Source: a virus. From it: a stretch of 64,000 nt of DNA. How positions within the stretch are numbered: the stretch's first letter is position 1; every line of letters begins with the position of its first letter. The notes beneath the pieces are model-generated. The model ran no database searches and was not told the DNA's origin. It was given only the letters and a program-made list of their open reading frames with translations. Positions 10,716 to 62,761 of this stretch are shown one piece after another. The DNA is taken from IMG/VR virus record IMGVR_UViG_3300025158_000018, one strand, 5' to 3'. The translations under genes were made by a program, and so were the position numbers.

Positions 10716-10769
10716 TCATTCCGGGCCATTTGTTGGTAATCTCACGGGTATTCTTGAATGTCACGTTGT

Positions 10770-11400: not shown

Positions 11401-11411
11401 TGTATTTGAAA

Positions 11412-11608: not shown

Positions 11609-11636
11609 ATTATACCCTATTTATTACCCTTGTCAA
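11609..11636 (-). promoter_or_regulatory. sigma70-like promoter (TTGACA-16-TATAAT), ~115 nt upstream of tRNA 11412..11488
   Basis: minus strand ttgacaagggtaataaatagggtataat. Confidence 0.4.
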
Positions 11637-11654
11637 GAAGGAATCACTCAGCAA

Positions 11655-12062: not shown

Positions 12063-12096
12063 TGTTTTTCTCCTTTAAGTTGAAAATCTTCAAAGC

Positions 12097-12552
12097 TCAA
12101 TCATCCCCAGACTTGCAGAATTCGACAAATTCTGCAAGAGTTCCACTCCACTTGTTGCAAGTGATTTCCTCGACTCCCGCAACGAGAGCATTGTCTGGTT
12201 CCCGAAAATATACAGTATAGTCATAAGCTTGTGAGTCGCCCTCGTCAGTCATATACAAACCTCCGACACGATCCTTATTCTGGGCGATGAACTGGGCAAC
12301 CAAGCAGCCCGGTCCGTTCGCATGGGTTCCGAGGCGAGCATCTGAACCAATACCATGGATAATTTTGATACCAGACAAAAACTCTGCCAAAGTCACACCC
12401 ACACTATCGGGGTAACCATCATACTGCTGATAGACACTGGCAATATGGCGCACTTGGTATTCACTACGTTCTTTGAAATGAATTACACTAGGGGTTCCCA
12501 TTGTTTTCTCCTTTAATTTCGGGTTCATCCTTCTCAGTGTTGATTTCTTCAA
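12097..12552 (-). CDS. hypothetical protein
   Basis: ORF. Confidence 0.45.
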   Translation of the reverse strand: MKKSTLRRMNPKLKEKTMGTPSVIHFKERSEYQVRHIASVYQQYDGYPDSVGVTLAEFLSGIKIIHGIGSDARLGTHANGPGCLVAQFIAQNKDRVGGLYMTDEGDSQAYDYTVYFREPDNALVAGVEEITCNKWSGTLAEFVEFCKSGDD

Positions 12553-12892
12553 TCTGTTGATTCAACCATGATTCCAATAGTTCGAAACTCTTGCTACCAA
12601 CAGACTGTACATGTTCGCTGTTAACCATGTTGAGCGCACCTTCATAACCAAGCGCACCAGCAACAATAATAACGACACCTTCGCGGTCTGGTACGAATGT
12701 TTTTACCATAAGGCCACCAATCAAGAAAAATGAAAGAATGATCAGAGCACCCTTTTCCCACAAAGTTTTCATGAAAGTACGGCCCTTAAGATCACTAAAG
12801 ATAAGACTAAAAAGCAACAACGAAAGCAACGAAAACCCAGACACAGCAATCACGCCCGTTGCGACAGAACGAAAATTATCTACCATCGTCAA
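12488..12892 (-). CDS. hypothetical membrane protein
   Basis: two hydrophobic segments. Confidence 0.4.
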   Translation of the reverse strand: MTMVDNFRSVATGVIAVSGFSLLSLLLFSLIFSDLKGRTFMKTLWEKGALIILSFFLIGGLMVKTFVPDREGVVIIVAGALGYEGALNMVNSEHVQSVGSKSFELLESWLNQQIEEINTEKDEPEIKGENNGNP

Positions 12893-12967
12893 AATATATA
12901 AAGAAGAAATACTACAGAACCTGTGCTCATTTTTTATTACTCCTGTTTGGTTTGAGATTACAGTATA

Positions 12968-13414
12968 TCAGGAATTTTCCAGACTTTCAAGCTGTTTAAT
13001 CTTGAGAGCGAAAAGTTCTCGATACGATTCGGCTAAATGGTCCCATTCGGGCTTGTAATCCTCATGAATAATAGAATCCTGAGTAAAGAATTGACTGTGT
13101 GAATTATGCCATTCCCACTTGTAGTTATCCACATCAAGAACTTTTAACTGTTCCGGAACCTCACCAGTCCCCTTGTAATGTTCCAGATCGGAAAGAGTTG
13201 GCTGATAGTGAATGGCTGAAATCAGTTTGACAGCAGACGTTAGAAGGTCTGCGGTATCACGAAAAACCTTATCAGAGCAACCACAATCACCAAAAGCCCT
13301 ACGCGAATAGATACTTTCTGGCAACCATGTTGCGAGATCCAATCCTAAATTAGAAATGTCATCCATCTCCCGGACGATATCTCTCATTTGGTCGATGATG
13401 CTTAAATTAAACAT
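12968..13414 (-). CDS. hypothetical protein
   Basis: ORF. Confidence 0.45.
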   Translation of the reverse strand: MFNLSIIDQMRDIVREMDDISNLGLDLATWLPESIYSRRAFGDCGCSDKVFRDTADLLTSAVKLISAIHYQPTLSDLEHYKGTGEVPEQLKVLDVDNYKWEWHNSHSQFFTQDSIIHEDYKPEWDHLAESYRELFALKIKQLESLENS

Positions 13415-14049
13415 TACATTGTTCCTTGAATTTGACTTAGTAAAAGTTTTAATCTTCCAGATTCATCTTGAGACAATTCTTTGTTCTTTGCCCAATAGCC
13501 AACCGGAGGTTTAATGATTCCGTGTTTTTTACAATATTTACCTATGGCTGAATCTGATATACCCATAATACTAGCAAGATTTGAGGTGGATGTCAACCAA
13601 ATAAGTTCTTTCAAAACTTCAGGCTTTATACTTATTTTCCTTGAGGATTCTGCGGCACATCTTTTACTACAATATTTTTTTCTTTTTCTGGAATTTCTTT
13701 TAAATTTATTCCCACACATCTGACACACTGAGTGCTTTTCATTATCAGACATAAGTTCATATCCGTTTAGTGTAACGCCACGTTCTTCTATATGCCCTCT
13801 AGCATGCACCGAAATATCTGTTATTTCTAAATTATTGAGGCTGTTATTTTTCCTATTTCCGTCTTTGTGATGAACTACCTCTGTTGGTAGTAGATTTCTT
13901 TGAAGGCTTTCTGCAACAACATAGCGGTGATAATATAATTTTCCAGATTTGTTCGACATCGGGTGATAGGGAGCATACACCACCATGTACCCCAAATGTT
14001 TATCCTCCCAAACCCTAGTACTCTTTTCAAGTGCGATAAATTTCTTCAT
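13414..14049 (-). CDS. HNH endonuclease (HNH_3-type) with C-terminal Zn-ribbon/HTH region
   Basis: VVHHKDGNRKNNSLNNLE HNH motif; CQMCG..C..C; sits between tRNA-Arg and upstream genes. Confidence 0.7.
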   Translation of the reverse strand: MKKFIALEKSTRVWEDKHLGYMVVYAPYHPMSNKSGKLYYHRYVVAESLQRNLLPTEVVHHKDGNRKNNSLNNLEITDISVHARGHIEERGVTLNGYELMSDNEKHSVCQMCGNKFKRNSRKRKKYCSKRCAAESSRKISIKPEVLKELIWLTSTSNLASIMGISDSAIGKYCKKHGIIKPPVGYWAKNKELSQDESGRLKLLLSQIQGTM

Positions 14050-14106
14050 GAAGCCCTCTCGACTAACATACTTTTTATTTATATGTTAGTCGAGAGTTTG
14101 TAATAA

Positions 14107-14182
14107 TGGCACCCTCTACAGGACTCGAACCCATACTAAGGGAGTAGAAATCCCTTGTGCTATCCAGTTACACCAAAAGGGC
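14107..14182 (-). tRNA. tRNA-Arg (TCT)
   Basis: anticodon stem aggga/tccct, loop ttTCTac, T-loop TTCGAGT, CCA; TTGACA-17-TAGTAT promoter at 14193..14221 (minus). Confidence 0.85.
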
Positions 14183-14263
14183 TATTATTTTTATACTACC
14201 ACCAAGATCAAAACCTGTCAACTACTTAACGTTCTTCCATCAAAGAACAAAGTAGTAATCGTT

Positions 14264-14674
14264 TTAATTGTTTCTATCAACCCAATTTACAGTTGGACAA
14301 TACTTATTCTTCCAACCACTAATAGTTTCCCGGATGATTCCCGGTTCCGAATTAGTAGATTTTTCCCAAAGTTGGATACTGTACGCAAACCCCACACATG
14401 CCGCCATTGTTGTAATAATTATCCAGACAATTAACGCCCAAAGAGCGAACGTAAAGAAAATAAACGGGCCACCAAATAAAACCACCACCAACTGAATTGT
14501 TCCTAGGACGAACATTCCCGCCAATGTCCCAAATGCAATTAGACAGAAGGTTAATATGGCTAGGCGAGTCCATAGTTGGCAAAGATTGTTGATATAGTAC
14601 GGGTTGGCCGGTTCCCAGAACTCCCCATACCGATGCAAAAAAGAATAAACTTGGCTGTTCTTTGAAATGTTCAT
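14264..14674 (-). CDS. hypothetical membrane protein
   Basis: multiple hydrophobic helices. Confidence 0.45.
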   Translation of the reverse strand: MNISKNSQVYSFLHRYGEFWEPANPYYINNLCQLWTRLAILTFCLIAFGTLAGMFVLGTIQLVVVLFGGPFIFFTFALWALIVWIIITTMAACVGFAYSIQLWEKSTNSEPGIIRETISGWKNKYCPTVNWVDRNN

Positions 14675-14733
14675 TGTGTGTTCTCCTGTTAGTTTAATCG
14701 TATGGTTGATTGTGTCACGCTTTTATATTCTTG

Positions 14734-15378
14734 TCAACCACTTAACTGTATCAGTGAATTATACTGCTCTTGTACCTTCTTTGCAAGAACTTTATGAATT
14801 CCCGGATTGACTTCGAGAACCTTGGGGACAAGCTCATGACGAATCTTGTTTCGCATGAATCCAGTATTCTCGTTTGAAGGATCATTGATATAAGGAACAG
14901 AATTACGCTCTGCCCATTCCAAAATTTCTTCTTTCTTAGCCATCAACATAGGCCGAAAACAATTTCCCCGCATGTACGGAACGATCTTAGGTGTTCCGTG
15001 AAAACTGGAAAACAGCCAAGTTTCTAAAACATCATCAAGATGATGCGCCAGTAAAATAGGTTCCGGATATCCGTGTTTTTCTGCCCTGTCGAAAAATGAA
15101 TATCGACGTTCACGCCAGAAATCTTCTTTGGACCTCTTTTCGGGAACGGGATCACGAAGTTCATCAGAAATAAACCCCACGCCCAAGGATTCAGAAACAT
15201 TTTTGACGAAAGAAAAAGCGTCGTCGGCGTGTTCCGTCCCATGATGATAGTGCAACACATTGATCTTCCTACGACCGTTGATTAAAAAGTCAAGAAGGAC
15301 CATAGAATCTACCCCACCAGAAACCGCCACATTGACCCGTTCTGGGATTTCTCCCAACATTCTCATCACGGGAACCAC
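14734..15378 (-). CDS. tilS: tRNA(Ile)-lysidine synthetase, catalytic N-terminal PP-loop domain
   Basis: PP-loop VAVSGGVDSMVLL, LHYHHG, RRYSFF, LAHHLDDVLETWLF, FRPML..EIL.WA...VPYINDPSN...RNKIR collinear with E. coli TilS as recalled. Confidence 0.8.
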   Translation of the reverse strand: MVPVMRMLGEIPERVNVAVSGGVDSMVLLDFLINGRRKINVLHYHHGTEHADDAFSFVKNVSESLGVGFISDELRDPVPEKRSKEDFWRERRYSFFDRAEKHGYPEPILLAHHLDDVLETWLFSSFHGTPKIVPYMRGNCFRPMLMAKKEEILEWAERNSVPYINDPSNENTGFMRNKIRHELVPKVLEVNPGIHKVLAKKVQEQYNSLIQLSG

Positions 15379-15608
15379 TCGAACAAGATCATTCCCAGCA
15401 TGTGAAACCCCGAAAGAATGACAAAAACTACCGCGATGGTGCCCAAAATGCCAATGAGAACGCAGTATGCAAAGACGAAAAGAATTCCAATGTAGAACCG
15501 AAAAGTATCCGGGTCATCACCAAAGATAGCAATAACAATATCCACCGGCAACATGAATACAGTGATGAGGATTGAGGTCAAAGTGTAGGACACGCTGCTG
15601 TTTTCCAT
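15366..15608 (-). CDS. hypothetical membrane protein
   Basis: hydrophobic ORF. Confidence 0.4.
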   Translation of the reverse strand: MENSSVSYTLTSILITVFMLPVDIVIAIFGDDPDTFRFYIGILFVFAYCVLIGILGTIAVVFVILSGFHMLGMILFEWFP

Positions 15609-15669
15609 TTTAGTTCCTGTGAGTGAATTCTATAAGAGCATACTACCATGAAAAAATCGATATGTCAAA

Positions 15670-16245
15670 TTATAGAAGTGAACGGTTTTTGAATAGTCGT
15701 TGGAATTGTTGGAAATTTTCTTCTGTAATCATGTGAATTCTGGGGGGCTTGAACCAATAATCGAGACTGGATAGTGCAGCTTCATCATCTGCATAGTATT
15801 CTGACAGCCAGTTGTATACTGTAGAAGCGAACAAAATGCCGTGTCCCTCTTCTCGAATCTTACTCTTGCCCTTTAGGTCATAGTCAATAAAACATTCTAC
15901 CACGACATGAGCCAACTCGTGGAAGACGTATGACGGATACATCATGTTATGTTCCACCCAGATCAATCCATGTCTGGGTCCCAACGTCTTTCCCCAAGAA
16001 TAACTCATGGCAGACCGTGCTTCTGGGTATAACTGTTCGACTCTAACCCCACACTTTTGAGAGATAGAGCGAACAAGCTTAGAGGCTTCAGCTTGATTGA
16101 TCTCATACTCCCTCTTGTAGAAGGAGTCATGAAACCTAGTAAAGATGTCTTCCTGCCAGTCTATCTCTCGTGGAAACTTTGTTTTTTTCTGCGGATGGGA
16201 TTGATTCACGCTTTGTACAAACTTGAGTTGGTCAATCCACTGCAT
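15670..16245 (-). CDS. putative Zn-metallopeptidase-like protein (HExxH)
   Basis: YVFHELAHVV motif. Confidence 0.4.
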   Translation of the reverse strand: MQWIDQLKFVQSVNQSHPQKKTKFPREIDWQEDIFTRFHDSFYKREYEINQAEASKLVRSISQKCGVRVEQLYPEARSAMSYSWGKTLGPRHGLIWVEHNMMYPSYVFHELAHVVVECFIDYDLKGKSKIREEGHGILFASTVYNWLSEYYADDEAALSSLDYWFKPPRIHMITEENFQQFQRLFKNRSLL

Positions 16246-16726
16246 CTTTCGGTCGATATTCCTCTATAGTTTTCTCACAGAAGCCATACACATCCCGCGA
16301 GTACTTGATAATGGTACTGATATGTGTCCAATCATCATGCAAATGATCGATGTTCATATACGCCAACCGTGTCAGTGTCAGACAGGACCTCCACTTAAGA
16401 ACATCCACAGGATTGTCCCCGAAGATGTACTCAAGGTCCATATGAACGCTGGTGCGATACGCAGTGTCCACCGCCTTGATCATCGTGAAGATGTTCCGCC
16501 GAAAATTCTGGTTCTGTAGGAACAACATGTAGGTGTCCAGATCGATAGCGTAGTGCTTCGCCCTTTCACTGCTCCCCAATCCGGGAATGTTAGGAAAAAA
16601 ATACCAACACCAATGGGTTTCCTTTCGACCTTGAACTGAAATCTCGAATAGAGCATTGGTAAGATGTTTTTTCTGCATTCTAGTGTAATCATCTAGAAGT
16701 CTTGCTTTGTCACCATTCTGGATCAT
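16232..16726 (-). CDS. DUF1810-like protein
   Basis: HWCWYFFPNIPGLGSSERAKHYAI resembles DUF1810 signature as recalled. Confidence 0.45.
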   Translation of the reverse strand: MIQNGDKARLLDDYTRMQKKHLTNALFEISVQGRKETHWCWYFFPNIPGLGSSERAKHYAIDLDTYMLFLQNQNFRRNIFTMIKAVDTAYRTSVHMDLEYIFGDNPVDVLKWRSCLTLTRLAYMNIDHLHDDWTHISTIIKYSRDVYGFCEKTIEEYRPKDAVD

Positions 16727-17363
16727 ACGTATAACCTCGGTTGATAATTTTTTCGAAACAATCTTTTAGTGAAGTCGGAGGACAGTCCTGAGACATAGAA
16801 CTGTAACTTAGTTTACCTAGCATCCACTCGTCTTTATCACGATCCAGCATGATCAGGTAATTCACTCCGGAAGCAAATCCGTCGTTCGTATACAATGTGA
16901 TCCCAACACCTTTACGATTTTTACACCCAACCTTGTGGGTAAGTTCGTAGTTGTCGAGAAGCATATTCAACGATTTTTCGAATTCTTCAAAACTGGTATT
17001 CTTTCTTACACGAATTTCCATCCCGTATGTTTTTTGTTGATTCATGTGGTCATAATACGACACAAAGTCGTTAAAGACCGTAGAAGGTAAATTGTACTTG
17101 GCATTTGGCCACGAATTATAAACCTTTTGTGTTACTGCCGCATCGTTGTCTTTTTTCTTACACCACCACAACCAATCCAAAACATCTTTGGTGGTATGTA
17201 CGTCAGGGTCAAACATGACGTTGTGCTTGCGATCCACCAGAGCAACCACGTTACCGGGCATCCCTTCGTCCAAATACTTTTGAAATTTTTCACGCAACGC
17301 ATCCAGATTTTTCCTGTCAGAACTTTGAATCTTTCTGGATCGGGAATATTTCCCGAAATCCAT
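16710..17363 (-). CDS. hypothetical protein
   Basis: ORF. Confidence 0.5.
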   Translation of the reverse strand: MDFGKYSRSRKIQSSDRKNLDALREKFQKYLDEGMPGNVVALVDRKHNVMFDPDVHTTKDVLDWLWWCKKKDNDAAVTQKVYNSWPNAKYNLPSTVFNDFVSYYDHMNQQKTYGMEIRVRKNTSFEEFEKSLNMLLDNYELTHKVGCKNRKGVGITLYTNDGFASGVNYLIMLDRDKDEWMLGKLSYSSMSQDCPPTSLKDCFEKIINRGYTYDPEW

Positions 17364-17548
17364 TCTCGTGCTTCCTTCGCACTAGGGAATTCCGTAGCAG
17401 AATTCAACAAAAAAAACATAATTTGCGCCGTTTTTGGTTAGTCGAATGAACATGCCAAATTTTGTAAGACCATCTACTTGAATGATTGCTTTCATGTGAG
17501 TATTCTATCCTATGGAAAGGGTCTTGTCAACCCCCATGTTAGAAAATT

Positions 17549-17622
17549 TGGTACCTCGTGACAGAATCGAACTGCCGTCATCGCTGTGTAAGAGCGTGGT
17601 TCTTCCATTGAACTAACGAGGC
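17549..17622 (-). tRNA. tRNA-Val (TAC)
   Basis: acceptor gcctcgt/acgaggt, D-stem gttc/gaac, loop ctTACac, T-arm ggcag-TTCGATT-ctgtc, CCA; missed by my first pass, found by T-loop scan. Confidence 0.75.
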
Positions 17623-17629
17623 ATTGTTT

Positions 17630-17714
17630 TGGTGCCGAGGGTAGGATTTGAACCTACGGTGTGGAATACTGGGTTACAAAGCCAGTGCAATCGACCAGAC
17701 TATGCGACCTCGGC
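17630..17714 (-). tRNA. tRNA, probably Thr (TGT); unusual 10-11 nt variable region or 9-nt anticodon loop
   Basis: acceptor gccgagg/cctcggc, T-arm gtagg-TTCAAAT-cctac, CCA; anticodon arm folds as ctggc-tttgtaa-cccag (one mismatch) or actgg-9nt-ccagt; TATAAATA 13 nt upstream. Confidence 0.6.
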
Positions 17715-35291: not shown

Positions 35292-35713
35292 TCAAAGAAA
35301 TTATCTTAGCCGGAAATGTAATCGCATCTTCCGCAGAAAATTTAGTTGAATTAAATGGTTATTGGGAGAATTCGCAACACGCAGTATCAATCAATATTAC
35401 CAACACCAGCGGTGAAATTATATGGTATACAACCGGATTTACTGTCGGAGAAGATGTTTGGTACAATGGGGAACTTTATTACTCTGAATATATCAGCGCC
35501 TATTGTGCCGATCTAACTCCCGGAAACACCATTCTACCAACTGTACTGTACCCCGTTCCACCTCTAGGAACCATCTGTATGGATGTTATTGATGAAACTT
35601 TGATCATTGGTTACTCTGTTGAAATGAGGGATTTTGGGAATTGCTTGTTCATGACTTGGAATTCGCATATCCCCCGGAAATGCGGCGGTAATATGGACAT
35701 GTTTAGAAAATGA
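35288..35713 (+). CDS. hypothetical protein
   Basis: ORF. Confidence 0.45.
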   Translation: MIKEIILAGNVIASSAENLVELNGYWENSQHAVSINITNTSGEIIWYTTGFTVGEDVWYNGELYYSEYISAYCADLTPGNTILPTVLYPVPPLGTICMDVIDETLIIGYSVEMRDFGNCLFMTWNSHIPRKCGGNMDMFRK

Positions 35714-36183
35714 AATTGATTAAAGGTGATTTATTGAAAAATACCAGTGGACTTCTATTGCATGGAGTCAACTGTCAACAAAAAATGAATTCTGGGATAG
35801 CAAAAGCAATAAGAGCAAAATGGCCTATAGTGTTTCAAGAATACTACAAGTTGGGAAAAGGAAAGCACTTGCTTGGAACTTTTCAACCAGTCGTCATTAG
35901 TAATTATCTGGTTATTGGAAATTGTTTTACTCAGGAATTTTATGGTCACACTGGTGGGCCATACGCTGACCTTGGGGCCATACGTAAGTCCTTGACAACT
36001 GCCGCAGAGTGGGCTAAAATTGAAGACATGGAACTGAAGATGCCGAAAATTGGAGCCGGTCTGGGCGGATTGGATTGGGTTGATGTAGCTATGGTAGTGG
36101 AAGAAGTAGAAGAATCGGTGGGCATAGAAATTAGTGTTTATCAAATTTCCCCCGGTACACAAAAAGCTGTGCTTTTTCGTTAG
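35710..36183 (+). CDS. macrodomain protein, TARG1/OARD1/DarG-like
   Basis: GDLL..LLHGVNCQQKMNSGIAKAIRAKWP and KIGAGLGGLDWVDV match TARG1-type macrodomain pattern as recalled. Confidence 0.65.
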   Translation: MKLIKGDLLKNTSGLLLHGVNCQQKMNSGIAKAIRAKWPIVFQEYYKLGKGKHLLGTFQPVVISNYLVIGNCFTQEFYGHTGGPYADLGAIRKSLTTAAEWAKIEDMELKMPKIGAGLGGLDWVDVAMVVEEVEESVGIEISVYQISPGTQKAVLFR

Positions 36184-38297: not shown

Positions 38298-39485
38298 ATG
38301 AAGATAATTAAGCTATTCGAGGCGAAAGAACCAGACCTTTCATCCATCATCGGCCCGGATGTTAAAAAATTAGGTCGTATATTCAAAAATAATGGATACG
38401 AAATACGAATCGTAGGTGGTGCTGTGCGTGATGCTTTACTCGGAAAAACCCCCAAAGACATCGACCTAGCAACAACCGCTACCCCGGAAGAGATGGAAAA
38501 GATTGGGCGTGTAAACAACCTTAGAGTTGTTGATACCGGATCAGAACATGGAACATTAACTTTTGTTATAAATGATGAACCTTATGAAATAACCACTTTA
38601 AGAATTGACAAAGATACTGACGGTAGACATGCTGAAGTGGAATGGACTCGCGATTTTAAGGAAGACGCCAGAAGAAGGGATTTGACCTATAACGCTATGT
38701 CGGTGGATATGGACGGAAAACTTCATGATTACTTTGGTGGCCATGAAGACTTGAAGAACAAGCAAACCCGCTTTGTCGGCGACCCAGATGAAAGAATTCA
38801 AGAAGATTATCTCCGGATTCTTCGTTATTTCAGATTCTTGGCCAAACAAGAAGGACGAGCGTCAGACGAACAAACTTTACAATCTATTTCAAGAAATGTT
38901 GGAGGATTACGTAAAATATCGGCGGAAAGAATTTGGTCAGAGTTAAGTAAAATGGTAATACAACCAAATATGAAACAAGCATTCAAAGAAATGAAAAAAT
39001 GTGGCGTCCTAGGGGCCATTTCTATGCCAACAAGCAGTTCAGCAATACGGCACGGAGCCGAAGCTGCAAAACTGCCTGAGATTCGCCCAGAGGCGGTCAT
39101 AGCCACAATGTTGGACGCAACACCGTCGGAGACAATGAATTTCGTGTCGAGAATGAAAATGTCTAGACCAGAAGCCAATTTGATAAACTACATAGTGGCG
39201 CGGGAAAACGTAAAAGGTGTTTCTTTTCTTGATGAAATCTTTTTCAATGGAATTAAACCCGAAACTGTTCGTCAATATGGGTTGGCAGTTGGTGACAGTT
39301 CTGCTGTATCAGCGGCAAAAGCAGCAGAAAATGCTCCACCATTCCCCGTTTCTGGTGGAGATTTATTGAAACGGGGTTTTACACCCGGACCAGAATTAGG
39401 TAAAATGATCAATTCACTCAAAAAACAATGGGTGGACAGTGGATTCAAACTGAACAAAGAACAACTTTTAGGAAAATTGAAATGA
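38298..39485 (+). CDS. cca: tRNA nucleotidyltransferase (CCA-adding enzyme), class II head domain
   Basis: GGAVRD, DIDLAT, RRDLTYNAM motifs. Confidence 0.85.
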   Translation: MKIIKLFEAKEPDLSSIIGPDVKKLGRIFKNNGYEIRIVGGAVRDALLGKTPKDIDLATTATPEEMEKIGRVNNLRVVDTGSEHGTLTFVINDEPYEITTLRIDKDTDGRHAEVEWTRDFKEDARRRDLTYNAMSVDMDGKLHDYFGGHEDLKNKQTRFVGDPDERIQEDYLRILRYFRFLAKQEGRASDEQTLQSISRNVGGLRKISAERIWSELSKMVIQPNMKQAFKEMKKCGVLGAISMPTSSSAIRHGAEAAKLPEIRPEAVIATMLDATPSETMNFVSRMKMSRPEANLINYIVARENVKGVSFLDEIFFNGIKPETVRQYGLAVGDSSAVSAAKAAENAPPFPVSGGDLLKRGFTPGPELGKMINSLKKQWVDSGFKLNKEQLLGKLK

Positions 39486-40012
39486 TTTTAAAAGAAATAT
39501 TTTTACAAGAATCAGTAAACGCTACTGATAAGTACACCATAGCAGTAGATATGGACGGGGTTTTGGCCGATTTCTCTGCGGGGGCCAGAGAAATGTTGGG
39601 TTTAGACAAAGATACTACACCTTCTAAAAAATTTTGGTCTACCTTGAGTAGATATGATAAAGAAGTTAAGCCATTTTTTCTCAATTTGCCCGTTATGGAT
39701 GATGCTTTTGAGTTGATGAGATTCGTCCATTCAAACTTTAAAAATTATTATATATTGACCGCTTCCGGGTATACTCCAAAAGACGGGGCGGAACAAAAGA
39801 AAGAGTGGGTTAAAAAAGTGTTTGGTCCGCAAATTAGAGTGGAAGTGGTAAAGAAATCTTCAGACAAGGCCAACTACGCCACAAACAACAGTATTTTAAT
39901 TGATGACAGGATGCATTCCATAGGCCCATGGAGAGATGCTGGCGGAATAGGTATTGTTCACGTTACAGCACAGCAATCTATTACAGAACTAAAATCTTTT
40001 TTGGGCCGTTAA
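39482..40012 (+). CDS. 5'(3')-deoxyribonucleotidase (NT5C-like HAD)
   Basis: AVDMDGVLADF motif; ATGA overlap with cca stop. Confidence 0.7.
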   Translation: MILKEIFLQESVNATDKYTIAVDMDGVLADFSAGAREMLGLDKDTTPSKKFWSTLSRYDKEVKPFFLNLPVMDDAFELMRFVHSNFKNYYILTASGYTPKDGAEQKKEWVKKVFGPQIRVEVVKKSSDKANYATNNSILIDDRMHSIGPWRDAGGIGIVHVTAQQSITELKSFLGR

Positions 40013-40827
40013 TCTAAAAGTTCGACCGGGGCATCAACCATACTAAAGTCGGACGGTATGTGTTTGCCCCAAGCTTTTTTTCCGGCCAAATCTATTATCC
40101 CGACGATTTTGTTAGAACCCCTGAATCCTACATTTGATGGAATAGAAAAAGTTTTAGAAATCTTGTCACTTTCTGTTCCAACATATTTCCTGACTATATT
40201 TTTAAAAATCTTTCTGAGACCGTCTTGTTCGTCTCTTATATCCGTACTGCCCGTAATACGTCCATCAACCAATTTACTAGCAAGAGATTTTATGTGAAGG
40301 GTAGAACGTTTGATAATGTTTTCAACCGTTACCGGATTTAAGTTATAAAACTCTTTCAAGTTTTTAGAAAGAGTTTTTGTGGTTTCTTTAGTTATTGTTT
40401 CAACCATTTGATCAATTTCTTCAAACATTTCGTCAGAGTCGTCATGGTTGTATTTGTCTAGGATATGTAAAACTTCGCCATAAATCTTACTGTCGATTTT
40501 ATCTAATATCTGAAATAAATCATCTTCGTCTAAATAAGAAGATTTCGGCTGAACCTCGGCAATTATTATTGCGGGCTCACTACTATCTATCCAACGAGCA
40601 AAATTTTTTGCTTTTCCAAAATTGGTAGTAAAATACACCCCCTCGTGTGGCTCATAGCCAAACCCGAAATCGGTGTTCATCTCATCATCACCCAAGCCCC
40701 CGCCCCTGTAGTTCATTATCAACCCATTTTTGATAATAGAGCGGAGATTCTTTTTACTGGTAGCATGATACGCTATAACCTTTTCTTTGGAAAATTTGGC
40801 CTTTTCCAAAACTATTCCTATTTTCAA
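40009..40827 (-). CDS. PARP-like (ARTD-clade, H-Y-E type) ADP-ribosyltransferase fold protein, putative
   Basis: AYHATSKKNLRSIIKNGL (PARP LWHGSRTTNFAGILSQGL), GVYFTTNFGKAKNFA (PARP GIYFADMVSKSANY), hydrophobic AIIIAEV strand, candidate catalytic E in YGEVLHI; recollection-based. Confidence 0.4.
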   Translation of the reverse strand: MKIGIVLEKAKFSKEKVIAYHATSKKNLRSIIKNGLIMNYRGGGLGDDEMNTDFGFGYEPHEGVYFTTNFGKAKNFARWIDSSEPAIIIAEVQPKSSYLDEDDLFQILDKIDSKIYGEVLHILDKYNHDDSDEMFEEIDQMVETITKETTKTLSKNLKEFYNLNPVTVENIIKRSTLHIKSLASKLVDGRITGSTDIRDEQDGLRKIFKNIVRKYVGTESDKISKTFSIPSNVGFRGSNKIVGIIDLAGKKAWGKHIPSDFSMVDAPVELLD

Positions 40828-41344: not shown

Positions 41345-41380
41345 ACAAAAAAAATCAAAGACCCATTGTGGGTCTTTGAT
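41345..41380 (-). terminator. rho-independent terminator (minus strand)
   Basis: 11-bp stem tcaaagaccca/tgggtctttga followed by T8 on minus strand. Confidence 0.65.
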
Positions 41381-41482
41381 TTCGGGTTTGACAGCCTAAC
41401 AGCTTCACTGTGCGTTCACACTTCGGGTCTTTCAAGGTCACTGGGTTGCTGTCTGCTACTATTGACCTTTTTTCGCACCCGA

Positions 41483-42821: not shown

Positions 42822-43253
42822 TTAGTCAGTAAATACTTCGTTTTCTTTCTTGATCCTTTCCAAAATTCGACCAAGATGATTTTCCCCCTTCCCGCTTTCT
42901 ATATCAACCCCCCAAAAAGTATCTCCCCAACTGTTTCCTTCCACGATTGGCTCGTCTATTTGTGACAGTCTTTCGGCAAGTTCTGTATCAGAAAACTTGA
43001 TCTTGTTAAGATCATACATTATTTGTAGACTGATGTCAATCCAATCCGGGCGGACGTATTTACTGTACTTTCGAGATAGGCGTTTGGCCTTTCCCGGAGT
43101 ATTTGAATTAATTATCTTTTGCCGAATAGATGGGTCAGTAAACTTCAAAGCTTGGTAAGCATGCTCTGAGGTAAGATAGGTTACACCCTGAAATGTTATA
43201 GGATGCATATAAAAATTACTTAAAAAATCATATTTTCCCCTAAATTGCATCAT
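42822..43253 (-). CDS. NADAR (YbiA/DUF1768) domain protein
   Basis: FRGKYDFLSNFYMHPITFQGVTYLTSEHAYQALKF signature. Confidence 0.75.
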   Translation of the reverse strand: MMQFRGKYDFLSNFYMHPITFQGVTYLTSEHAYQALKFTDPSIRQKIINSNTPGKAKRLSRKYSKYVRPDWIDISLQIMYDLNKIKFSDTELAERLSQIDEPIVEGNSWGDTFWGVDIESGKGENHLGRILERIKKENEVFTD

Positions 43254-44002
43254 TCCATTAACTCCACAGTGATTTTACCGGTTGATAAAAAACTACCAGT
43301 GTCTATGTAACGAACGTTTCCAATATTGGTAACTTTTTCAACTATAGTGTGTCCGACGTAAATCCGGTCAACATTTAGAATTTTTTTAAGATCGGCTTGT
43401 AAATAGCTTCTGGAAGTAAAACGGCTTCTGCCCCAATACAAATTGTCCGCTAAATCTTTGCTCATCTGGTCTTCTGTCATTTTATACAATAACGACCAAT
43501 CGGTGAATTTGATTGGAAGCTCTGCATGTAGCACCCCAAATTTCTTACCATTTTTATGGTTTACCTCAATAATAGACGGAAGCTTTTCTATTATTTTTTT
43601 AAATCTAAGGTATGCTCCCCCATTGTCAATAATGGACCCACCGTTTTGCATAAAAATATGAAAATATGTTTTCAACTGAACGACATCATCAGTAGCAGGG
43701 TCGTAATCTTCCATCCAATACTTATGAGCAGCAAGCCACATTATTTCGTGATTTCCTAAAACGGGAAAAAACCATTCTTCTTCCATCAGTTTTAGACAAG
43801 AAAGGCTATCTGGTCCACGGTCCACAAGGTCTCCTACAGAAAAAACTCTGTCTACATTAGGATCGAATCTGTTGTCATAAAGAAGATTTTTGAAATCTTC
43901 ATAGCATCCGTGTAGATCGGATACTACGAAGTCTCTTCCTTCGGGGTTTGGTCCGTATGATTTAAAAAATTTCATTGATGTATTATAACTGGAACTATTC
44001 AA
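43250..44002 (-). CDS. calcineurin-like metallophosphoesterase (PP-lambda / ApaH-like)
   Basis: DLHG, GDLVDRG, GNHE motifs. Confidence 0.8.
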   Translation of the reverse strand: MNSSSYNTSMKFFKSYGPNPEGRDFVVSDLHGCYEDFKNLLYDNRFDPNVDRVFSVGDLVDRGPDSLSCLKLMEEEWFFPVLGNHEIMWLAAHKYWMEDYDPATDDVVQLKTYFHIFMQNGGSIIDNGGAYLRFKKIIEKLPSIIEVNHKNGKKFGVLHAELPIKFTDWSLLYKMTEDQMSKDLADNLYWGRSRFTSRSYLQADLKKILNVDRIYVGHTIVEKVTNIGNVRYIDTGSFLSTGKITVELME

Positions 44003-44034: not shown

Positions 44035-45804
44035 TCAAACCAAACGTCTTAAAGTTCTTTGATCTGGTGGTTGACCGGTAATATTAAAGAGAATTTGTCC
44101 ATTTTCAACGCTGCCGGTACCGATTGAATTTATTTCAAAGTCAGATTTTATAGCAAACTGTCCACCATCTACCGAATATATTTTCAAATCATCTAATGGG
44201 CCTGACAACATCCGCCATAGTTTGTTTCCTTCGGTATCGTGCAAAAGCCAATACAATATGGCATGGCCTTTTGAGTCTACAGAAATTGTCATTCCTTCGT
44301 TGTTACCAATTCCATAGTATCCGTTCATTGAATGTTCCGAAGCTTGTGATATTCTCTGTAACGGCACGGCTATTGGGCCATATCCTTCTATTTCCCCCCG
44401 CATTATGCCGGTAGTGTCATTGTGCCAATAAACCATGATTTCCCCCAATTCCGATATTTCTCCCTCGGGGTTAGCAGTAACAATCGTACCCTTGGCGACA
44501 GTCCCTTCTACATCACAAACAGCCCAAAACCACTGGTGTTGGCTATGCTCCCGATCTTTCCACGTTAGCCAGTGCAAAACCACGCGATTGTCGTCGGTGA
44601 ACCCAACATGCACCCCTTGCACCGACCATTGTTTGTTGCCCCACTGTCCGGCCAAGTTTTTAGTTATTGGCGATGAATCCCCAATCCACCATATAGGTTC
44701 TGTTATCGTTGGTGTGGGTGCGGTACTGGTTTTATTAAAGACCCGCACTTTTGCGGAATATTTGTTAAGTTTTTCTACTCGCACCACAATGTCATCGAAT
44801 TCGTATTGCGTTTCAGTTTCAATATACCGCAACAGCCTAGTAATTACCCACCGCTTGGTACCCTCGAACCACGGTACATGGACGGCAACAACTCCATTGT
44901 AGAAACTAACACATACTGATTTGTTCGTGCTGTCTCCTGTGTTGCACATAACAGCTTTATTCTCGCCGGTGCGTAAGGACAAAGGATTTCTGGAACCTTG
45001 GACCAACCACGTTTCAACAGACTCTCCGGATTCAAGCCCAATGATGTTGTTGTCTTCTATCAACCCGGCTTCGATTAAGTGTGGGGTATTAAAATCATAT
45101 ACGACCCCCGGTAGTCGGTCGAGCCCCATCCACGTGGAATTTTCTGCATATTCGCGTTGTCCTTGGCCAGAATGACTAACTCCTAATAAGGAATGTCCTA
45201 GGGTTTCGTGTATATGCGTACTTTTTTTGTACACACACCACGACTTAGACCAGCTTTTCGGACCATTTAAATCGGCACGACCACACAAGCTAGAATTAGA
45301 AATACCGGAAGATGTTATACACCCGTAATGCGTGTCGCCGAGTCTTTTATTGGGATACGCCTGATCTGACATATACCGAAGCATAGGCCAATCTACACCA
45401 AAGTAGCCATCACTGGTTATAATCGTTGGAAAGTTTACCGGATATACCTCAATATCCACTCGACCCCCAGCTATTCTGAGGTATTCATTCTTGATATCTT
45501 TTGCAGTGCGTTTGACATAATCGTCGCTTTCAAGATCTGGAAAAACTTCCGGCGACACCCCGTACCCAAATGTCAGTCCGACTCGTCGAACATCATGCTC
45601 TGGTAGTGCGGTCAAATCATATTGCCAATCTTCCAAATTTAAGAGACCAGCAGATTCAGAAAAAAGAGCCTCTATCGTTTTACCCATAGGGGGATTTTTG
45701 GCCATAGAATGTGGTGTTAGTTCTAGTCCCAGTGGATATTCATCAGTTATGATGATAGGAACATGACGGTCGTTTAACGTTATATGTCCGCGCAATACTA
45801 GCAT
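44035..45804 (-). CDS. large paralog 2 (589 aa) with conserved HETLGHSLLGVSHSG metal-binding-like motif
   Basis: global similarity to 45878..47638, incl. shared C-terminus PD.R.LRRL. Confidence 0.5.
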   Translation of the reverse strand: MLVLRGHITLNDRHVPIIITDEYPLGLELTPHSMAKNPPMGKTIEALFSESAGLLNLEDWQYDLTALPEHDVRRVGLTFGYGVSPEVFPDLESDDYVKRTAKDIKNEYLRIAGGRVDIEVYPVNFPTIITSDGYFGVDWPMLRYMSDQAYPNKRLGDTHYGCITSSGISNSSLCGRADLNGPKSWSKSWCVYKKSTHIHETLGHSLLGVSHSGQGQREYAENSTWMGLDRLPGVVYDFNTPHLIEAGLIEDNNIIGLESGESVETWLVQGSRNPLSLRTGENKAVMCNTGDSTNKSVCVSFYNGVVAVHVPWFEGTKRWVITRLLRYIETETQYEFDDIVVRVEKLNKYSAKVRVFNKTSTAPTPTITEPIWWIGDSSPITKNLAGQWGNKQWSVQGVHVGFTDDNRVVLHWLTWKDREHSQHQWFWAVCDVEGTVAKGTIVTANPEGEISELGEIMVYWHNDTTGIMRGEIEGYGPIAVPLQRISQASEHSMNGYYGIGNNEGMTISVDSKGHAILYWLLHDTEGNKLWRMLSGPLDDLKIYSVDGGQFAIKSDFEINSIGTGSVENGQILFNITGQPPDQRTLRRLV

Positions 45805-45877: not shown

Positions 45878-47638
45878 TTAGGCTAGTCTTCGTAAACTAC
45901 GTTCATCAGGTTCCTTTCCGTCTAGATTAAAAGTTACCGTGTTGTTTGACACAGTCGCAGTACCGATTTTCTCTACAGTAAAATCGGACTTCACAGAAAA
46001 CTGACCACCTTCAACTTTATAAATGTCTAATTCACCACCATTTCCTTGCAGCATGTGCCATAATTTGTCGTTATTGTTGTGTCCTAACCAATAACATAAC
46101 ATGCGTCCGTTAGAACCGGTCGATATAGTTAGACCCTCGCCATTACCTATTCCATAATATCCTGCGATGTATGATGGATTAGCAGCAAACACACGAGTAA
46201 ACGGCATGGCGAATCTCAGTCCATGATTGAATGTTCCTCTTGCAATTCCTTGTTCTTCAGAATACCAAAAAACTTCTATATCTCCCACTTCTTCCGGTCT
46301 TCCATACTTATCAGCCGTTATTAACGTACCTTGGGCTAATCTTCCGTCGTTGGAAATATCGCATACTGCCCAATACCAAGCATGTGAATCAATTTCGTAT
46401 CTGTCCCATGTTAACCAATGTAAAACCAATTTCCCACTATCATTAAATCCGACATGCACCCCCTGCACAGACCATTTTCTGTTCCCCCACTGTCCCCTTG
46501 CCCAATCCCCTATTTGCGGAGAAGTGGCTGGGTCGGGTCTCCCCCTTTCGGGGATTCTTGCGGTTTCGGGTTCAGTCGTGGTTTGGTTGAACACTTGTAC
46601 TCTTGCACAATCGTTTTTCAATTCTAGTACTCTGACCCTGACCCCAGAAAATGTTCCCTCCAAATTCGCAGCCCTAAAAGTTCGTAAAAGTCCAGATCGT
46701 AGAAAATTAGTGGTCATCCTGTGTCCGGGCTCATGGACACGCACAGTTCCATTAAAAAAAGAAACCATCAAGCGGCGAGTGAGTCCAGTGTTGGCCACAT
46801 GACATAAAATCGCCTTGTTTTCTCCCAATTTTAAGCTGAGAGGGTCGTCGGAGCCCTGCACCAAATAAGTATCTATTGATTCTCCCGGAACCAAGTATCT
46901 TACGTTGTTTTCTTCTATCAAACCCCCATGGTACAAATGTGGAGTATTAAAATCAGCAAATATTCTATCACCGCCGTTTCCCATTATAGTATCACCCTCA
47001 CCGTATGGGTTTCCACCGTTCCCAGTGCCGGAATGTTCTACCGCCATGATAGAATGACCCACGGTCTCATGAAAATGCGTATTTTTTGCTCCAACACAAG
47101 TAGATTTGCTCCACGAAAGCGTTCCCCCCAAATCTGCTCGACCACACACCCCTACGGTGCTGGACGATGTTTGTGAAATGGCACACAGGTGTGTAAAACT
47201 AGGGGCGTCCGGATTGGCCAAACGGCAGGCAGCGCCTAGGTCTGACCACTTAACGGTATAAAAGTCTGAGGCCGCGCCCACGTAAGATGCCGGATACGCA
47301 TGTACCTCCCAGCGATCCCTCCCCACACGGCGGGCTTCATTTTCTAATTGTTTCGCCCAACGCGTTGCAGCCTCTACTGCATTAGAATTATTGTCTTCTT
47401 CAGTTGAAACCCCAAATCCAACTGCAATGTGTATTTGCCTGATCTCGTAATCCGGCAAATCCGTTAGATCATACTGCCAATCCAGAACCACTCCGTCGAT
47501 TATGAGAGCTTCAATGGTTTTTCCCAATTCGGGCAAAGGCTCTACTGGCTCTATAGATATTTGTTGTCCATTGATCGTGTGAAACTGAAAGTTTCCGGAT
47601 TCAGTGTCTACTAAAACTTTTCCTCTGTAGGCATTCAT
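45878..47638 (-). CDS. large paralog 1 (586 aa) with HETVGHSIMAVEHSG motif
   Basis: paralog of 44035..45804; TATAAATA late motif ~25 nt upstream. Confidence 0.5.
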   Translation of the reverse strand: MNAYRGKVLVDTESGNFQFHTINGQQISIEPVEPLPELGKTIEALIIDGVVLDWQYDLTDLPDYEIRQIHIAVGFGVSTEEDNNSNAVEAATRWAKQLENEARRVGRDRWEVHAYPASYVGAASDFYTVKWSDLGAACRLANPDAPSFTHLCAISQTSSSTVGVCGRADLGGTLSWSKSTCVGAKNTHFHETVGHSIMAVEHSGTGNGGNPYGEGDTIMGNGGDRIFADFNTPHLYHGGLIEENNVRYLVPGESIDTYLVQGSDDPLSLKLGENKAILCHVANTGLTRRLMVSFFNGTVRVHEPGHRMTTNFLRSGLLRTFRAANLEGTFSGVRVRVLELKNDCARVQVFNQTTTEPETARIPERGRPDPATSPQIGDWARGQWGNRKWSVQGVHVGFNDSGKLVLHWLTWDRYEIDSHAWYWAVCDISNDGRLAQGTLITADKYGRPEEVGDIEVFWYSEEQGIARGTFNHGLRFAMPFTRVFAANPSYIAGYYGIGNGEGLTISTGSNGRMLCYWLGHNNNDKLWHMLQGNGGELDIYKVEGGQFSVKSDFTVEKIGTATVSNNTVTFNLDGKEPDERSLRRLA

Positions 47639-51938: not shown

Positions 51939-52338
51939 TTGATCATTATATTGATATGAGACGGTATTTGCAATACTACTGGCAACAATTAAAATAGAGA
52001 AGGGGACAAGTTAGCTTGTCCCCTTCTGAGCTTTGGTTATACGGATATTGCTCTAACCCGCATTCGATCAAGCTGCTAGGGCGAAGCCGTTAGCGTTGCT
52101 GTCGAAGTCAGCGTCATTTGCTGCATTTATTTTACTATCATTTTTGCGTCTTTGTTGACGATTCTCCTCGATTCCTAATAACGCCCGGTCGATTTCCAGT
52201 TTCGCCCCCTCCAAAAGCGTCCACCATTTCCCGGATTTACCGGGTTTCTGACGCATTACCCAACTCGTCTAAGGCTTTTTTGTTTGCTACGCCGGGAGGA
52301 TGCCCTATCCTTCCTCTGTTGGCACTTGTAGACGCTTT

Positions 52339-52390
52339 TGGAGACGGCGGGAGTCGAACCCGCGTGTCGTTCGCTTTCAGTCTCGTCTCA
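52339..52390 (-). ncRNA. tRNA-like minihelix RNA (acceptor + T-arm only), candidate
   Basis: 6-bp acceptor gagacg/cgtctc contiguous with T-arm gcggg-TTCGACT-cccgc; only 20 nt where D and anticodon arms belong; TATAAATA plus TATAAT 23 nt upstream. Confidence 0.35.
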
Positions 52391-52428
52391 ACGAATGCTT
52401 ATTATTATACCTATTTATATCCAACCCG

Positions 52429-53133
52429 TCAAGTATCTTCGGACAATTTTATTTTAGTCTTTTTCTTAGTAGTTTTTTTTCTTCCACTGGATACCAATTT
52501 ACCATCCAAGGGGGTTTTGGGAGTAATGTCTTCTGTCTCAAGTAAAGAATTCTTCTCTCCAGCTTCTAAACGAGCAATAAGCTGGTCGGAATCCATCCAG
52601 ATATCTCGACCATCAACTACATGGTCGATCTCTTCTTCTGTAAGAATTTTCTCATAAAACTTTCTCATTATTTTTTCCACATAGCCGTTTACATGCTCTA
52701 CTCTCGTTCTAATTTCATGCCCCTTTCCGATTGCAAAACCGCCAGAATAGTTGTGTATCATAAAAGAACAATTCGGATTGATGATATACTCTTCCCCAGA
52801 TAAAAAAATCAAAGTCGCTGCAGAATGGGCATCTCCGTCTAAAGAAGTAATCACTTTGGCTCTAGATGCGACCATAGAGTTCACAATCTGTATTGCCATT
52901 CTAAGAGAACCGCCTTCACTGTTGATGTAAATTACTATAGTATCCTCTTCATTAGCGGTTTTTAACACATTGAGTAGGTCTGAATACTTGTTAATATCAT
53001 CCTCTATCTCTCCAGACAGATAAAAGTGGTGAACATTTAATTGCAAGCTTTGTACGTAATGCTTAATTTTTGGTGGATCAATCCTAAAAGAAGAACCATC
53101 CTCGAATCTTTCGTCAATTGCTTTATTTGACAT
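52429..53133 (-). CDS. ClpP-family (S14) serine protease homolog
   Basis: INSEGGSL and MIHNYSGG blocks; basic C-terminal tail. Confidence 0.65.
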   Translation of the reverse strand: MSNKAIDERFEDGSSFRIDPPKIKHYVQSLQLNVHHFYLSGEIEDDINKYSDLLNVLKTANEEDTIVIYINSEGGSLRMAIQIVNSMVASRAKVITSLDGDAHSAATLIFLSGEEYIINPNCSFMIHNYSGGFAIGKGHEIRTRVEHVNGYVEKIMRKFYEKILTEEEIDHVVDGRDIWMDSDQLIARLEAGEKNSLLETEDITPKTPLDGKLVSSGRKKTTKKKTKIKLSEDT

Positions 53134-61330: not shown

Positions 61331-62761
61331 TTACCAATTTGTTCGGGCGTTGGTGCGGACCTCTTCAAACGTCATATCCCGTACCAATTTTCCATTCAGG
61401 AATACCTCTTCCAGTAGTTCTATGTCTGTCGGAAGTTTCTCTTCCTCTCTAATGGTGATGGGTAGTCGGACACCGGATCGCTTAACTAATATAACCCGAC
61501 CCGCCTTAGAAGCCTTAGTGGGGTCAGTCTCAGTAGTTTTACATACTTCTCGAATTTCTCCATCAACTTCCACATACGAGCCCTTCATAGCAAAACGTAA
61601 CGTATCTCTCGTCAAATCTTGAAGCAAATATCCACCACACCCAAATGTAATATTATCTGCACTGAAGCCTGAGACCTTCATGGTCTTCAAAATATTTTCG
61701 ACTTCGGAGAGATTCACACCATCACCTTGAATGATTCTGACCGCTGGATTCAAAACTTTAAAACCCTTGTCATTTATAGTGTAGCCGTAAGAATCGGAAA
61801 GCTTGTTCAACGCAAGCATAACCATTTCTGTGGGATTTCCACTGTCTGGACGAATCACCACAGTACCACCCTTTTCTTCTATCTTTTCCCGAAGCTCTGC
61901 CCAAATATTAAGAGCGTTTTCGAACGAATAAGTGTCGCTAACTACAGAAACCATCTTACCCTCGCCACCGTATACATCAATGGCGCGCTCAAAAAACTTC
62001 TTCTCGTTGCCCGGACCTTCTGCAATAGTAACCGTGTGCTCCGTCGCCGGAATTGAAAACCCTGTTACAACCGGAGAATTATAGTACTCCATACAGGCGA
62101 GAATCCCAACAATATTGTCAGTTGCCATGAAATTGACCAAGTGTGCTGCACCAGCAATCTCACTCGACTGCTTAGAAGATGCCCCACGTGCCCCAAAATC
62201 AACAAACTTGAAGTCGATGAGGTCGGGGTCACCAGTTTCTTCCAAGTAACTGGAAATCAATTCCCGGAAACGATATGAGCGCGTTGCGACCGTAGTTCCG
62301 TACCACACGCCACGAAGCAAAGAGGTTTCCACATAGGAAGTGACCCACGCACAATTCTCATCGGTGTTCTCGACAACAACCATCACATTTCCTTCTGGTA
62401 CGTGCATTCCTTCTGGAACTGCGCGAATACTTAAAGGCAAAAACCCGTCACATTCGTTGACTATGTATTCCCAACCTTTCCGGTTGAATGGAAGACCGTG
62501 TGCTGTGATAACGGCTTCGGCCTGATTAACCATTTCCATCGTAACGGGCTTCATTAATGAGGTTTTGATTAAATGTTGAAGACCGAAGAATACTGAAGTG
62601 TCATACTCTCCACCCTTTCGAGCTTCAATATAAGAATACTGTCGGGTGGTTCCGGGTGCCATGAACCCAAAGTGGCTGGTCTTGTACGAGTCGCAATTCA
62701 ATATAGGATTGTTGCTTAATTTGTTCATGTTAAACTCCTTAATCATGTTTTTATAAAGCAA
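61331..62761 (-). CDS. nadV: nicotinamide phosphoribosyltransferase (NadV/NAMPT)
   Basis: N-terminal NCDSYKTSHF, size 476 aa, DFGARG, GDG family blocks. Confidence 0.8.
   Translation of the reverse strand: MLYKNMIKEFNMNKLSNNPILNCDSYKTSHFGFMAPGTTRQYSYIEARKGGEYDTSVFFGLQHLIKTSLMKPVTMEMVNQAEAVITAHGLPFNRKGWEYIVNECDGFLPLSIRAVPEGMHVPEGNVMVVVENTDENCAWVTSYVETSLLRGVWYGTTVATRSYRFRELISSYLEETGDPDLIDFKFVDFGARGASSKQSSEIAGAAHLVNFMATDNIVGILACMEYYNSPVVTGFSIPATEHTVTIAEGPGNEKKFFERAIDVYGGEGKMVSVVSDTYSFENALNIWAELREKIEEKGGTVVIRPDSGNPTEMVMLALNKLSDSYGYTINDKGFKVLNPAVRIIQGDGVNLSEVENILKTMKVSGFSADNITFGCGGYLLQDLTRDTLRFAMKGSYVEVDGEIREVCKTTETDPTKASKAGRVILVKRSGVRLPITIREEEKLPTDIELLEEVFLNGKLVRDMTFEEVRTNARTNW

Follow-up and report, generated by a model that had tools for sequence, protein, structure and literature searches.

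DarT toxins that ADP-ribosylate DNA bases are a recognized defense against phages, and phages have recently been shown to counter them by removing the modification enzymatically, with NADARs (AdfN, 2025) or with macrodomains (AdfM, 2026). Every NADAR subtype tested hydrolyzes ADP-ribosyl-guanine (G-ADPr) in DNA and in RNA (PMC11543638, PMC11125620, PMC11833690), and orphan phage-borne NADARs (AdfN) defeat DarTG1 (PMC11825919). The AdfN of phage Bas32 neutralizes DarT1 in uninfected E. coli (Johannesman et al. 2025, PMC11825919) and lets RB69, T5, and Bas25 plate again on cells with DarTG1, with no effect on DarTG2 (PMC11825919). The AdfN of T4 (gp30.3) requires a T-even context for its full activity (PMC11825919). 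E. coli YbiA hydrolyzes both G-ADPr and ADP-ribosyl-cytosine (C-ADPr) in vitro (C-ADPr: PMC12945103); YbiA and T4 gp30.3 act on G-ADPr in vitro but do not rescue DarT1 toxicity in uninfected cells (T4: PMC11825919). Among macrodomains, the phage DarG2-like AdfM counters DarTG2 (published 2026, PMC13309987). Here we analyzed a NADAR gene in a stretch of 64,000 nucleotides from IMG/VR virus record IMGVR_UViG_3300025158_000018 (the window, by which we mean the whole stretch) and propose that it probably encodes a further counter-defense hydrolase of the AdfN type.

The gene and the motif preceding it are as follows.

42822..43253, minus strand: NADAR gene, an open reading frame (ORF) from ATG to TAA, 143 amino acids (aa) plus stop
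43262..43265, minus strand: Shine-Dalgarno-like GGAG, 8 nt 5' of the NADAR ATG and within the 3' end of the phosphatase gene upstream, read from the sequence

The ORF boundaries coincide exactly with the interval that the original prediction had assigned to a NADAR domain protein; the minus strand is added here, as no strand had been given. The gene product matches Pfam NADAR (PF08719) with 85.6 bits (E=5.7e-24; gathering cut-off 35.1) over profile positions 9-161 of 163. It also scores 87 bits against NCBIfam TIGR02464 ("riboflavin intermediates N-glycosidase"), above the cut-off of 73.7, and falls in phrog_1017 (E=4.2e-38), a PHROG whose function is not annotated. The DS-32 "NADAR family anti-phage protein" model NF053876 gave 74 bits, below its cut-off of 240, and a match to PADLOC PDC-M42C was partial (1.7e-11); the gene lies in a phage and not in a defense island. 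An AlphaFold2 model built on 61 homologues reached a mean predicted local distance difference test (pLDDT) score of 96.8, and a Foldseek search of the PDB with this model returned, at E<1e-3, only E. coli YbiA (2B3W, template modeling (TM) score 0.86) and the Phytophthora nicotianae NADAR with ADP-ribose (PnNADAR, 8BAU, TM 0.79). The assignment to NADAR is therefore far beyond chance, and the predicted signature proved to be real and complete, as the PF08719 score, the model confidence, and the matches to 2B3W and 8BAU attest. The accompanying statement, that NADARs are known ADP-ribosyl hydrolases able to reverse the guanine ADP-ribosylation made by DarT1-type toxins, agrees with the published record, in which they hydrolyze ADP-ribosyl-guanine in both DNA and RNA (PMC11543638, PMC11125620, PMC11833690).

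When the gene was compared with those of two relatives at 74% identity, the proportion of nonsynonymous differences (pN) was ~0.18 and that of synonymous differences (pS) ~0.8, with synonymous sites saturated, so that a dN/dS ratio could not be computed. The low pN with saturated synonymous sites therefore indicates that the gene is under purifying selection. NADAR homologues are widespread in viruses, occurring in 493 of 50,697 phage records and at more than 500 IMG/VR loci, and the exact NADAR protein of the window was found in 84 blocks of an assembly collection, on contigs of up to ~150 kb. The labels carried by the homologues in phage records vary and include "swarming motility protein," "YbiA," "GTP cyclohydrolase II," "riboflavin biosynthesis protein," and hypothetical. 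In Escherichia phage vB_EcoS_AVIO78A (locus L014, 2601..3411), the NADAR homologue is labeled "ParB-like protein," and the upstream "swarming motility protein" did not align as a NADAR.

To place the active site, residues were mapped through HMMER alignments to 8BAU and 2B3W, with residue roles taken from Schuller et al. 2023 (PMC11543638).

E30, equivalent to PnNADAR E43 (C7 NADAR E88, T4 AdfN E36): catalytic candidate
K37, equivalent to PnNADAR K50 (C7 NADAR K95, T4 AdfN K43): catalytic candidate
E105, near-equivalent to PnNADAR E125: third catalytic candidate, aligned with the YbiA Glu; the ungapped 8BAU alignment is off by one residue here
R61, equivalent to PnNADAR R79: ADP-ribose contact candidate
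W71, equivalent to PnNADAR W89: ADP-ribose contact candidate
D111, equivalent to PnNADAR D130: ADP-ribose contact candidate
W114, equivalent to PnNADAR W133: ADP-ribose contact candidate
S75, equivalent to PnNADAR R93, a phosphate contact: the sole departure among the mapped residues

E30, K37, E105, D111, and W114 are invariant in all 61 homologues, and the mapped ADP-ribose contact positions are invariant or almost so across the same set. With its catalytic residues conserved, the window NADAR is predicted to be catalytically intact. The residue at the E125 position splits the superfamily, Glu marking YbiA-type, Asp DarT1-associated, and His T4-type phage NADARs (PMC11543638, PMC11825919). 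By its E105, the window NADAR is of the Glu type, with a YbiA-type third catalytic residue.

Among characterized NADARs, the window protein scored best against the AdfN of Bas32 (bas32_0066), to which it is 37% identical and 60% similar over 142 residues (97.8 bits); identity to E. coli YbiA is 36%, with a lower score of 71.6 bits. The Bas32 sequence was reached through the Tequintavirus NADAR gene of phage OSYSP, which has 98.9% DNA identity to its counterpart in IrisVonRoten (MZ501075), the phage known as Bas32 (PMC11619597). In a neighbor-joining tree, which carries no support values and leaves out the sequences of DarG1 (E. coli C7), PnNADAR, the Bas60 AdfN, and the Retron-Eco1 inhibitor, Bas32 fell inside a star-like clade of window NADAR homologues, with YbiA of K-12 outside it and T4 gp30.3 far off.

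The window comes from an uncultured lytic-type myovirus. It holds rIIA, rIIB, two RNA ligases, a primase, and a nicotinamide phosphoribosyltransferase (NAMPT), along with 11 tRNAs, a permuted transfer-messenger RNA (tmRNA), an NAD-dependent ligase, ClpP, and a CCA-adding enzyme. The virus is classed as a myovirus on the strength of its relatives, which encode a sheath protein and a protein like T4 gp15. Megablast of the 8 kb around the NADAR gene against the 50,697 phage records found no match, and the best rIIA protein matches are only 27-41% identical; the phage has no close cultured relative. Its lineage is common in metagenomes. The precomputed Pfam hits for the 10 kb flanking the NADAR gene on each side include no DarT. 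Set in a phage genome with no DarT within that distance, though with a PARP-like ADP-ribosyltransferase (ART) candidate 2 kb away, the gene qualifies as an orphan phage NADAR.

The original prediction had further described the NADAR as a second eraser in the same genome as a macrodomain. This held up, since a macrodomain gene of the DarG/TARG1 kind was found 6.6 kb from the NADAR gene.

35710..36183, plus strand: DarG/TARG1/Poa1p-like macrodomain, 157 aa (Pfam Macro 24.6 bits, cut-off 22; PADLOC DarG 5e-14)

Its PDB matches are Poa1p, DarG (5M3I and 5M31), and TARG1; it carries N21 within an HGVNC motif, and it is kept in relative L011 at 77% identity. We regard it as a candidate AdfM-like anti-DarT2 factor.

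With moderate confidence, we propose that the window NADAR is a stand-alone ADP-ribosylglycohydrolase that removes host-made base ADP-ribosylation from phage DNA or RNA, and thus an AdfN-type counter-defense enzyme. The phage would make the enzyme in infection, when host toxins such as DarT1 would ADP-ribosylate phage bases. The NADAR would then cut the N-glycosidic bond between C1'' of ADP-ribose and the exocyclic amine of guanine (possibly of cytosine) in phage DNA or RNA, and removal of the ADP-ribose would lift blocks to replication and transcription. The DarG-like macrodomain would act on thymine-linked ADP-ribose, so that together with the NADAR both known DarT chemistries would be covered. 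Coexpression of the NADAR with DarT2 would be expected to give a negative result, since none of the NADARs tested to date acts on ADP-ribosyl-thymidine. The present analysis contributes to this proposal the domain membership, the fold, the conservation of catalytic residues, purifying selection, the phage setting, and homology to a validated AdfN. The substrate, taken from experiments on other NADARs, is inferred, as are the defense system that would be targeted and any benefit to the phage.

Two neighboring genes on the minus strand are of note, a phosphatase gene that overlaps the NADAR gene and an ART candidate further downstream.

43250..44002, minus strand: PPP-family metallophosphatase, lambda NinI/PrpA-like, upstream of the NADAR gene; the start in the public gene call is 43975, giving 241 aa
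43982..44010, minus strand: sigma-70-like promoter match, TTGACT-17-TATAAT (11/12), just 5' of the phosphatase-NADAR pair, a consensus match only
41351..41383, minus strand: terminator-like hairpin downstream of the SPFH gene, with a stem of 15 pairs and then a T run
40009..40827, minus strand: candidate PARP-like (H-Y-E/Q) ART, 272 aa, 2 kb downstream of the NADAR gene and past the predicted terminator

The phosphatase gene product matches Pfam Metallophos (59.8 bits) and the NinI-like phosphatases of phrog_246 (7.5e-55); the PrpA and PrpB models gave 115 and 100 bits, both under their cut-offs. Its TGA shares 4 bp with the NADAR ATG (ATGA), and the pair recurs with the identical 4-bp overlap in relatives L008-L012, in which the NADAR is 74% and the phosphatase 56-59% identical and three different downstream contexts are seen. 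No adjoining phosphatase was found at any of 80 other viral NADAR loci, one of which has a phosphatase relative 9 kb off. In the T5-like phage EP_H11, the upstream gene that overlaps the NADAR gene is no phosphatase, and T4 gp30.2 has no Pfam hit. A general phosphatase-NADAR functional module was therefore rejected, as the phosphatase is absent beside the 80 other viral NADARs and the pairing is confined to this phage lineage. We read the pairing instead as lineage-specific synteny or translational coupling, probably as a co-translated cassette, which matches no known two-enzyme system. The promoter match and the terminator-like hairpin suggest that the genes for the phosphatase, NADAR, small membrane protein, and SPFH protein are transcribed as one unit. 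In relative L008 (3254..5054), a serine resolvase gene and an OrfB_IS605/TnpB-like gene are inserted as a pair directly downstream of the NADAR gene, which shows that the region around this gene is a variable accessory zone.

The ART candidate, which the original prediction did not mention, scored 22.8 bits against Pfam PARP, just under the cut-off of 26.7, and its structure model has a pLDDT of 65.8. All seven known members of its family match PARP (best 7.7e-7) and three of the seven match Tpt1/KptA. In the H-Y-E/Q pattern of the family, H21 and Y65 are invariant and position 91 is E or Q (Q in 4/7 members). A divergent ADP-ribosyltransferase with a helical insert is thus a plausible identity for the product. 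The order phosphatase, NADAR, small protein, SPFH, ART candidate is repeated in relatives L009 and L010. In relative L011, where both the phosphatase-NADAR pair and the macrodomain are present, the 15.4 kb covered, reaching from ~5 kb upstream to 10 kb downstream of the NADAR gene, contain no ART candidate; in L006, an ART candidate (44% identity) is present and neither NADAR nor Macro lies within 10 kb. No relative of the ART candidate was found at any of the 80 other viral NADAR loci. An obligate ART-NADAR pair was rejected, given that each gene occurs without the other in L011 and L006.

Several observations weigh against the counter-defense proposal. The third catalytic Glu is of the YbiA type and the TIGR02464 score lies above its cut-off; YbiA itself fails to rescue DarT1 toxicity in cells despite its activity in vitro. 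At position 75, 48 of the 61 homologues have Lys or Arg, and Ser occurs in 11, the closest relatives among them. The identity to the validated AdfN of Bas32 is modest, and the tree that places the two together has neither support values nor DarG1, PnNADAR, and Bas60. The host may lack DarTG1 and any other guanine-ADP-ribosylating system, and the nearby ART candidate offers the NADAR an alternative client within the phage itself. On this last point turns an explanation that we consider unlikely, in which the NADAR is the self-immunity or tuning partner of the phage's own PARP-like enzyme, in the manner of YarT-YbiA: the targets of the ART would be nucleic acids or proteins of the host, and the NADAR, along with the macrodomain, would keep phage nucleic acid free of the mark or undo it. 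The H-Y-E/Q candidate lies on the same strand, a YbiA-type NADAR is the antitoxin to the small H-Y-E ART YarT (PMC11125620), and the gene order up to the ART candidate recurs in L009 and L010. However, the linkage is not obligate, as L011, L006, and the 80 other loci show, a strong terminator-like hairpin separates the two genes, and the ART call itself is weak, with a Pfam score under the cut-off, low model confidence, and Gln at position 91 in most family members. A wider version of the same idea, rather improbable in our judgment, is that of a phage ADP-ribosylation toolkit in which the PARP-like product is the writer, the NADAR and macrodomain are the erasers, and NAMPT supplies NAD, so that host nucleic acids would be attacked and the phage's own genome kept clean. 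The NADAR would then serve self-immunity instead of, or besides, counter-defense, and as a variant of this writer-plus-erasers arrangement the phosphatase and NADAR may be a two-enzyme module acting on one substrate.

The remaining explanations take the NADAR away from nucleic-acid repair. The TIGR02464 score, the best solved-structure match to E. coli YbiA, and the retained YbiA-type Glu E105 would all suit a metabolic N-glycosidase for riboflavin-pathway intermediates or small N-glycosides, unrelated to nucleic-acid ADP-ribosylation. We hold this to be very improbable, since the precomputed Pfam hits of the 10 kb flanking the gene on each side and the other ORFs scanned include no riboflavin-pathway gene, YbiA of K-12 lies outside the window NADAR clade in the neighbor-joining tree, and that clade holds a validated DNA de-ADP-ribosylase, the AdfN of Bas32. 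In addition, YbiA too hydrolyzes G-ADPr and C-ADPr in vitro, and the clean-up of riboflavin intermediates is of no evident use to a phage. It is also highly doubtful that the protein is an ADP-ribose-binding decoy against defenses that depend on NAD or ADP-ribose, or a hydrolase of immune signals derived from ADP-ribose. A phage NADAR that counters Retron-Eco1 without need of enzymatic activity, as cited in PMC11825919, gives this explanation a precedent, and NAMPT together with the macrodomain points to a conflict centered on NAD and ADP-ribose in this genome. Catalytic residues that are invariant in 61 homologues nevertheless fit an enzyme better than a pure binder, and we found no report of a NADAR cleaving signals of the cyclic ADP-ribose type.

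Other features of the window describe the phage further.

52068..52396, minus strand: permuted (two-piece) tmRNA (Rfam RF04321, 60.9 bits, gathering 47)
61331..62761, minus strand: NAMPT (phrog_448, 2.9e-149)
44035..45804 and 45878..47638, minus strand: two paralogous large proteins, 589 and 586 aa, 43% identical, no PHROG hit
38298..39485: CCA-adding enzyme
363..1559 and 2150..3301: RNA ligases
5299..5883: HAD domain of the "Swiss Army Knife" RNA repair type
9193..9639: HD domain
14734..15378: PP-loop ATPase
16232..16726, minus strand: DUF1810-family protein (65.4 bits), in the tRNA-rich region

ARAGORN placed the tmRNA at 51977..52429 and read its tag as AANDADFDSNANGFALAA. Alphaproteobacteria, some betaproteobacteria, and cyanobacteria typically have tmRNAs of the permuted form, and many of the best NADAR and rIIA phage matches are phages of alphaproteobacteria; the permuted tmRNA may thus be a hint to the host. 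RNA repair and tRNA genes are densely packed over 363..17714, which includes the 11 tRNAs, and this gene set, together with the CCA-adding enzyme, may be a countermeasure to tRNA-cleaving defenses. NAMPT fits NAD salvage or reconstitution in infection and adds to the NAD and ADP-ribose theme of the genome; in the related locus L006, NAMPT adjoins an NMNAT-Nudix gene and Acb1. The 589-aa paralogue has a weak, sub-threshold match to Pfam peptidase M11 (17.1 bits, cut-off 21) and the 586-aa paralogue has no Pfam hit. A relative, 30% identical, lies downstream of the NADAR gene in L011.

Phage NADARs have already been published as a counter-defense to DarTG1, and the window gene is a divergent member of this group. 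What the locus adds is a well-conserved NADAR from an abundant uncultured phage lineage. Beyond the ordinary are the occurrence of a Glu-type NADAR and a DarG-like macrodomain in one genome, which suggests that one phage can be equipped to erase guanine-linked as well as thymine-linked marks, the lineage-conserved phosphatase-NADAR cassette, and the nearby PARP-like candidate. The general picture of NADAR function is unaltered by this gene. As a small, easily expressed protein, it represents a Glu-type clade whose specificity in cells is poorly mapped, and the examples of YbiA and T4 gp30.3 make clear that the in vitro activity of a NADAR is no guarantee of rescue in cells.

Compared with known systems, the window NADAR shares its superfamily and its expected chemistry, hydrolysis of ADP-ribose on N2 of guanine, with the DarG1 proteins of E. 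coli C7 and Geobacter lovleyi. The catalytic Glu is residue 30 of 143 in the window protein and E88 of 229 in the C7 NADAR, and the third catalytic residue is Asp (D171) in DarG1 of C7 as against E105 here. A DarG1-type antitoxin was ruled out, as the window protein lacks both the N-terminal extension and the Asp at the third position, and its gene adjoins those of the phosphatase and a small membrane protein and not a DarT gene; the Geobacter NADAR was not retrieved when the PDB was searched by sequence with the window NADAR at E<=0.01. T4 AdfN resembles the window NADAR in being a phage ADP-ribosylglycohydrolase of the NADAR fold with a Glu/Lys pair (E36/K43), and in its setting, a phage with rII genes and an ADP-ribosyltransferase gene, alt, a few kilobases off. 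It differs in having His at the third catalytic position. Membership in the T4 gp30.3 type (Pfam Phage_30_3, PF08010) was ruled out by a score of 20 bits against a cut-off of 36, an identity of 24% over 62 residues, and Glu instead of His at position 105.

E. coli YbiA (2B3W) is the best solved-structure match of the window NADAR (TM 0.86, 36% identity); the two share the YbiA-type Glu, and the window protein lies above the TIGR02464 cut-off. YbiA is encoded in a LexA-controlled dinG/ybiB chromosomal operon, whereas the window NADAR is a phage gene, and neither the precomputed Pfam hits of the two 10-kb flanks nor the other ORFs scanned gave a riboflavin gene or a dinG-ybiB association. In the YarT-YbiA toxin-antitoxin pair of myxobacteria (PMC11125620), a YbiA-type NADAR is likewise found near a small H-Y-E ARTD-like transferase. 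The YarT and YbiA genes adjoin in one operon, in contrast to the 2 kb, three genes, and terminator-like hairpin that lie between their counterparts in the window, which are separable in relatives.

Among the characterized NADARs compared, the closest relative appears to be the AdfN of Bas32 (bas32_0066, Tequintavirus IrisVonRoten). The two come from different lineages, Bas32 being a T5-like siphovirus and the window phage an uncultured myovirus with rIIA and rIIB. Their NADAR genes also have different neighbors, RNase H and a small ORF in Bas32 and the phosphatase with its 4-bp overlap in the window phage, and position 75 is Lys in Bas32 AdfN and Ser in the window protein. Both, however, are stand-alone NADARs, that of the virulent phage Bas32 having ~145 aa and, as in the window, no adjoining DarT, and both have the same catalytic Glu and Lys and the same YbiA-type Glu. 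They further have in common an EGNxWGDTxWG motif with a one-residue insertion, which YbiA lacks.

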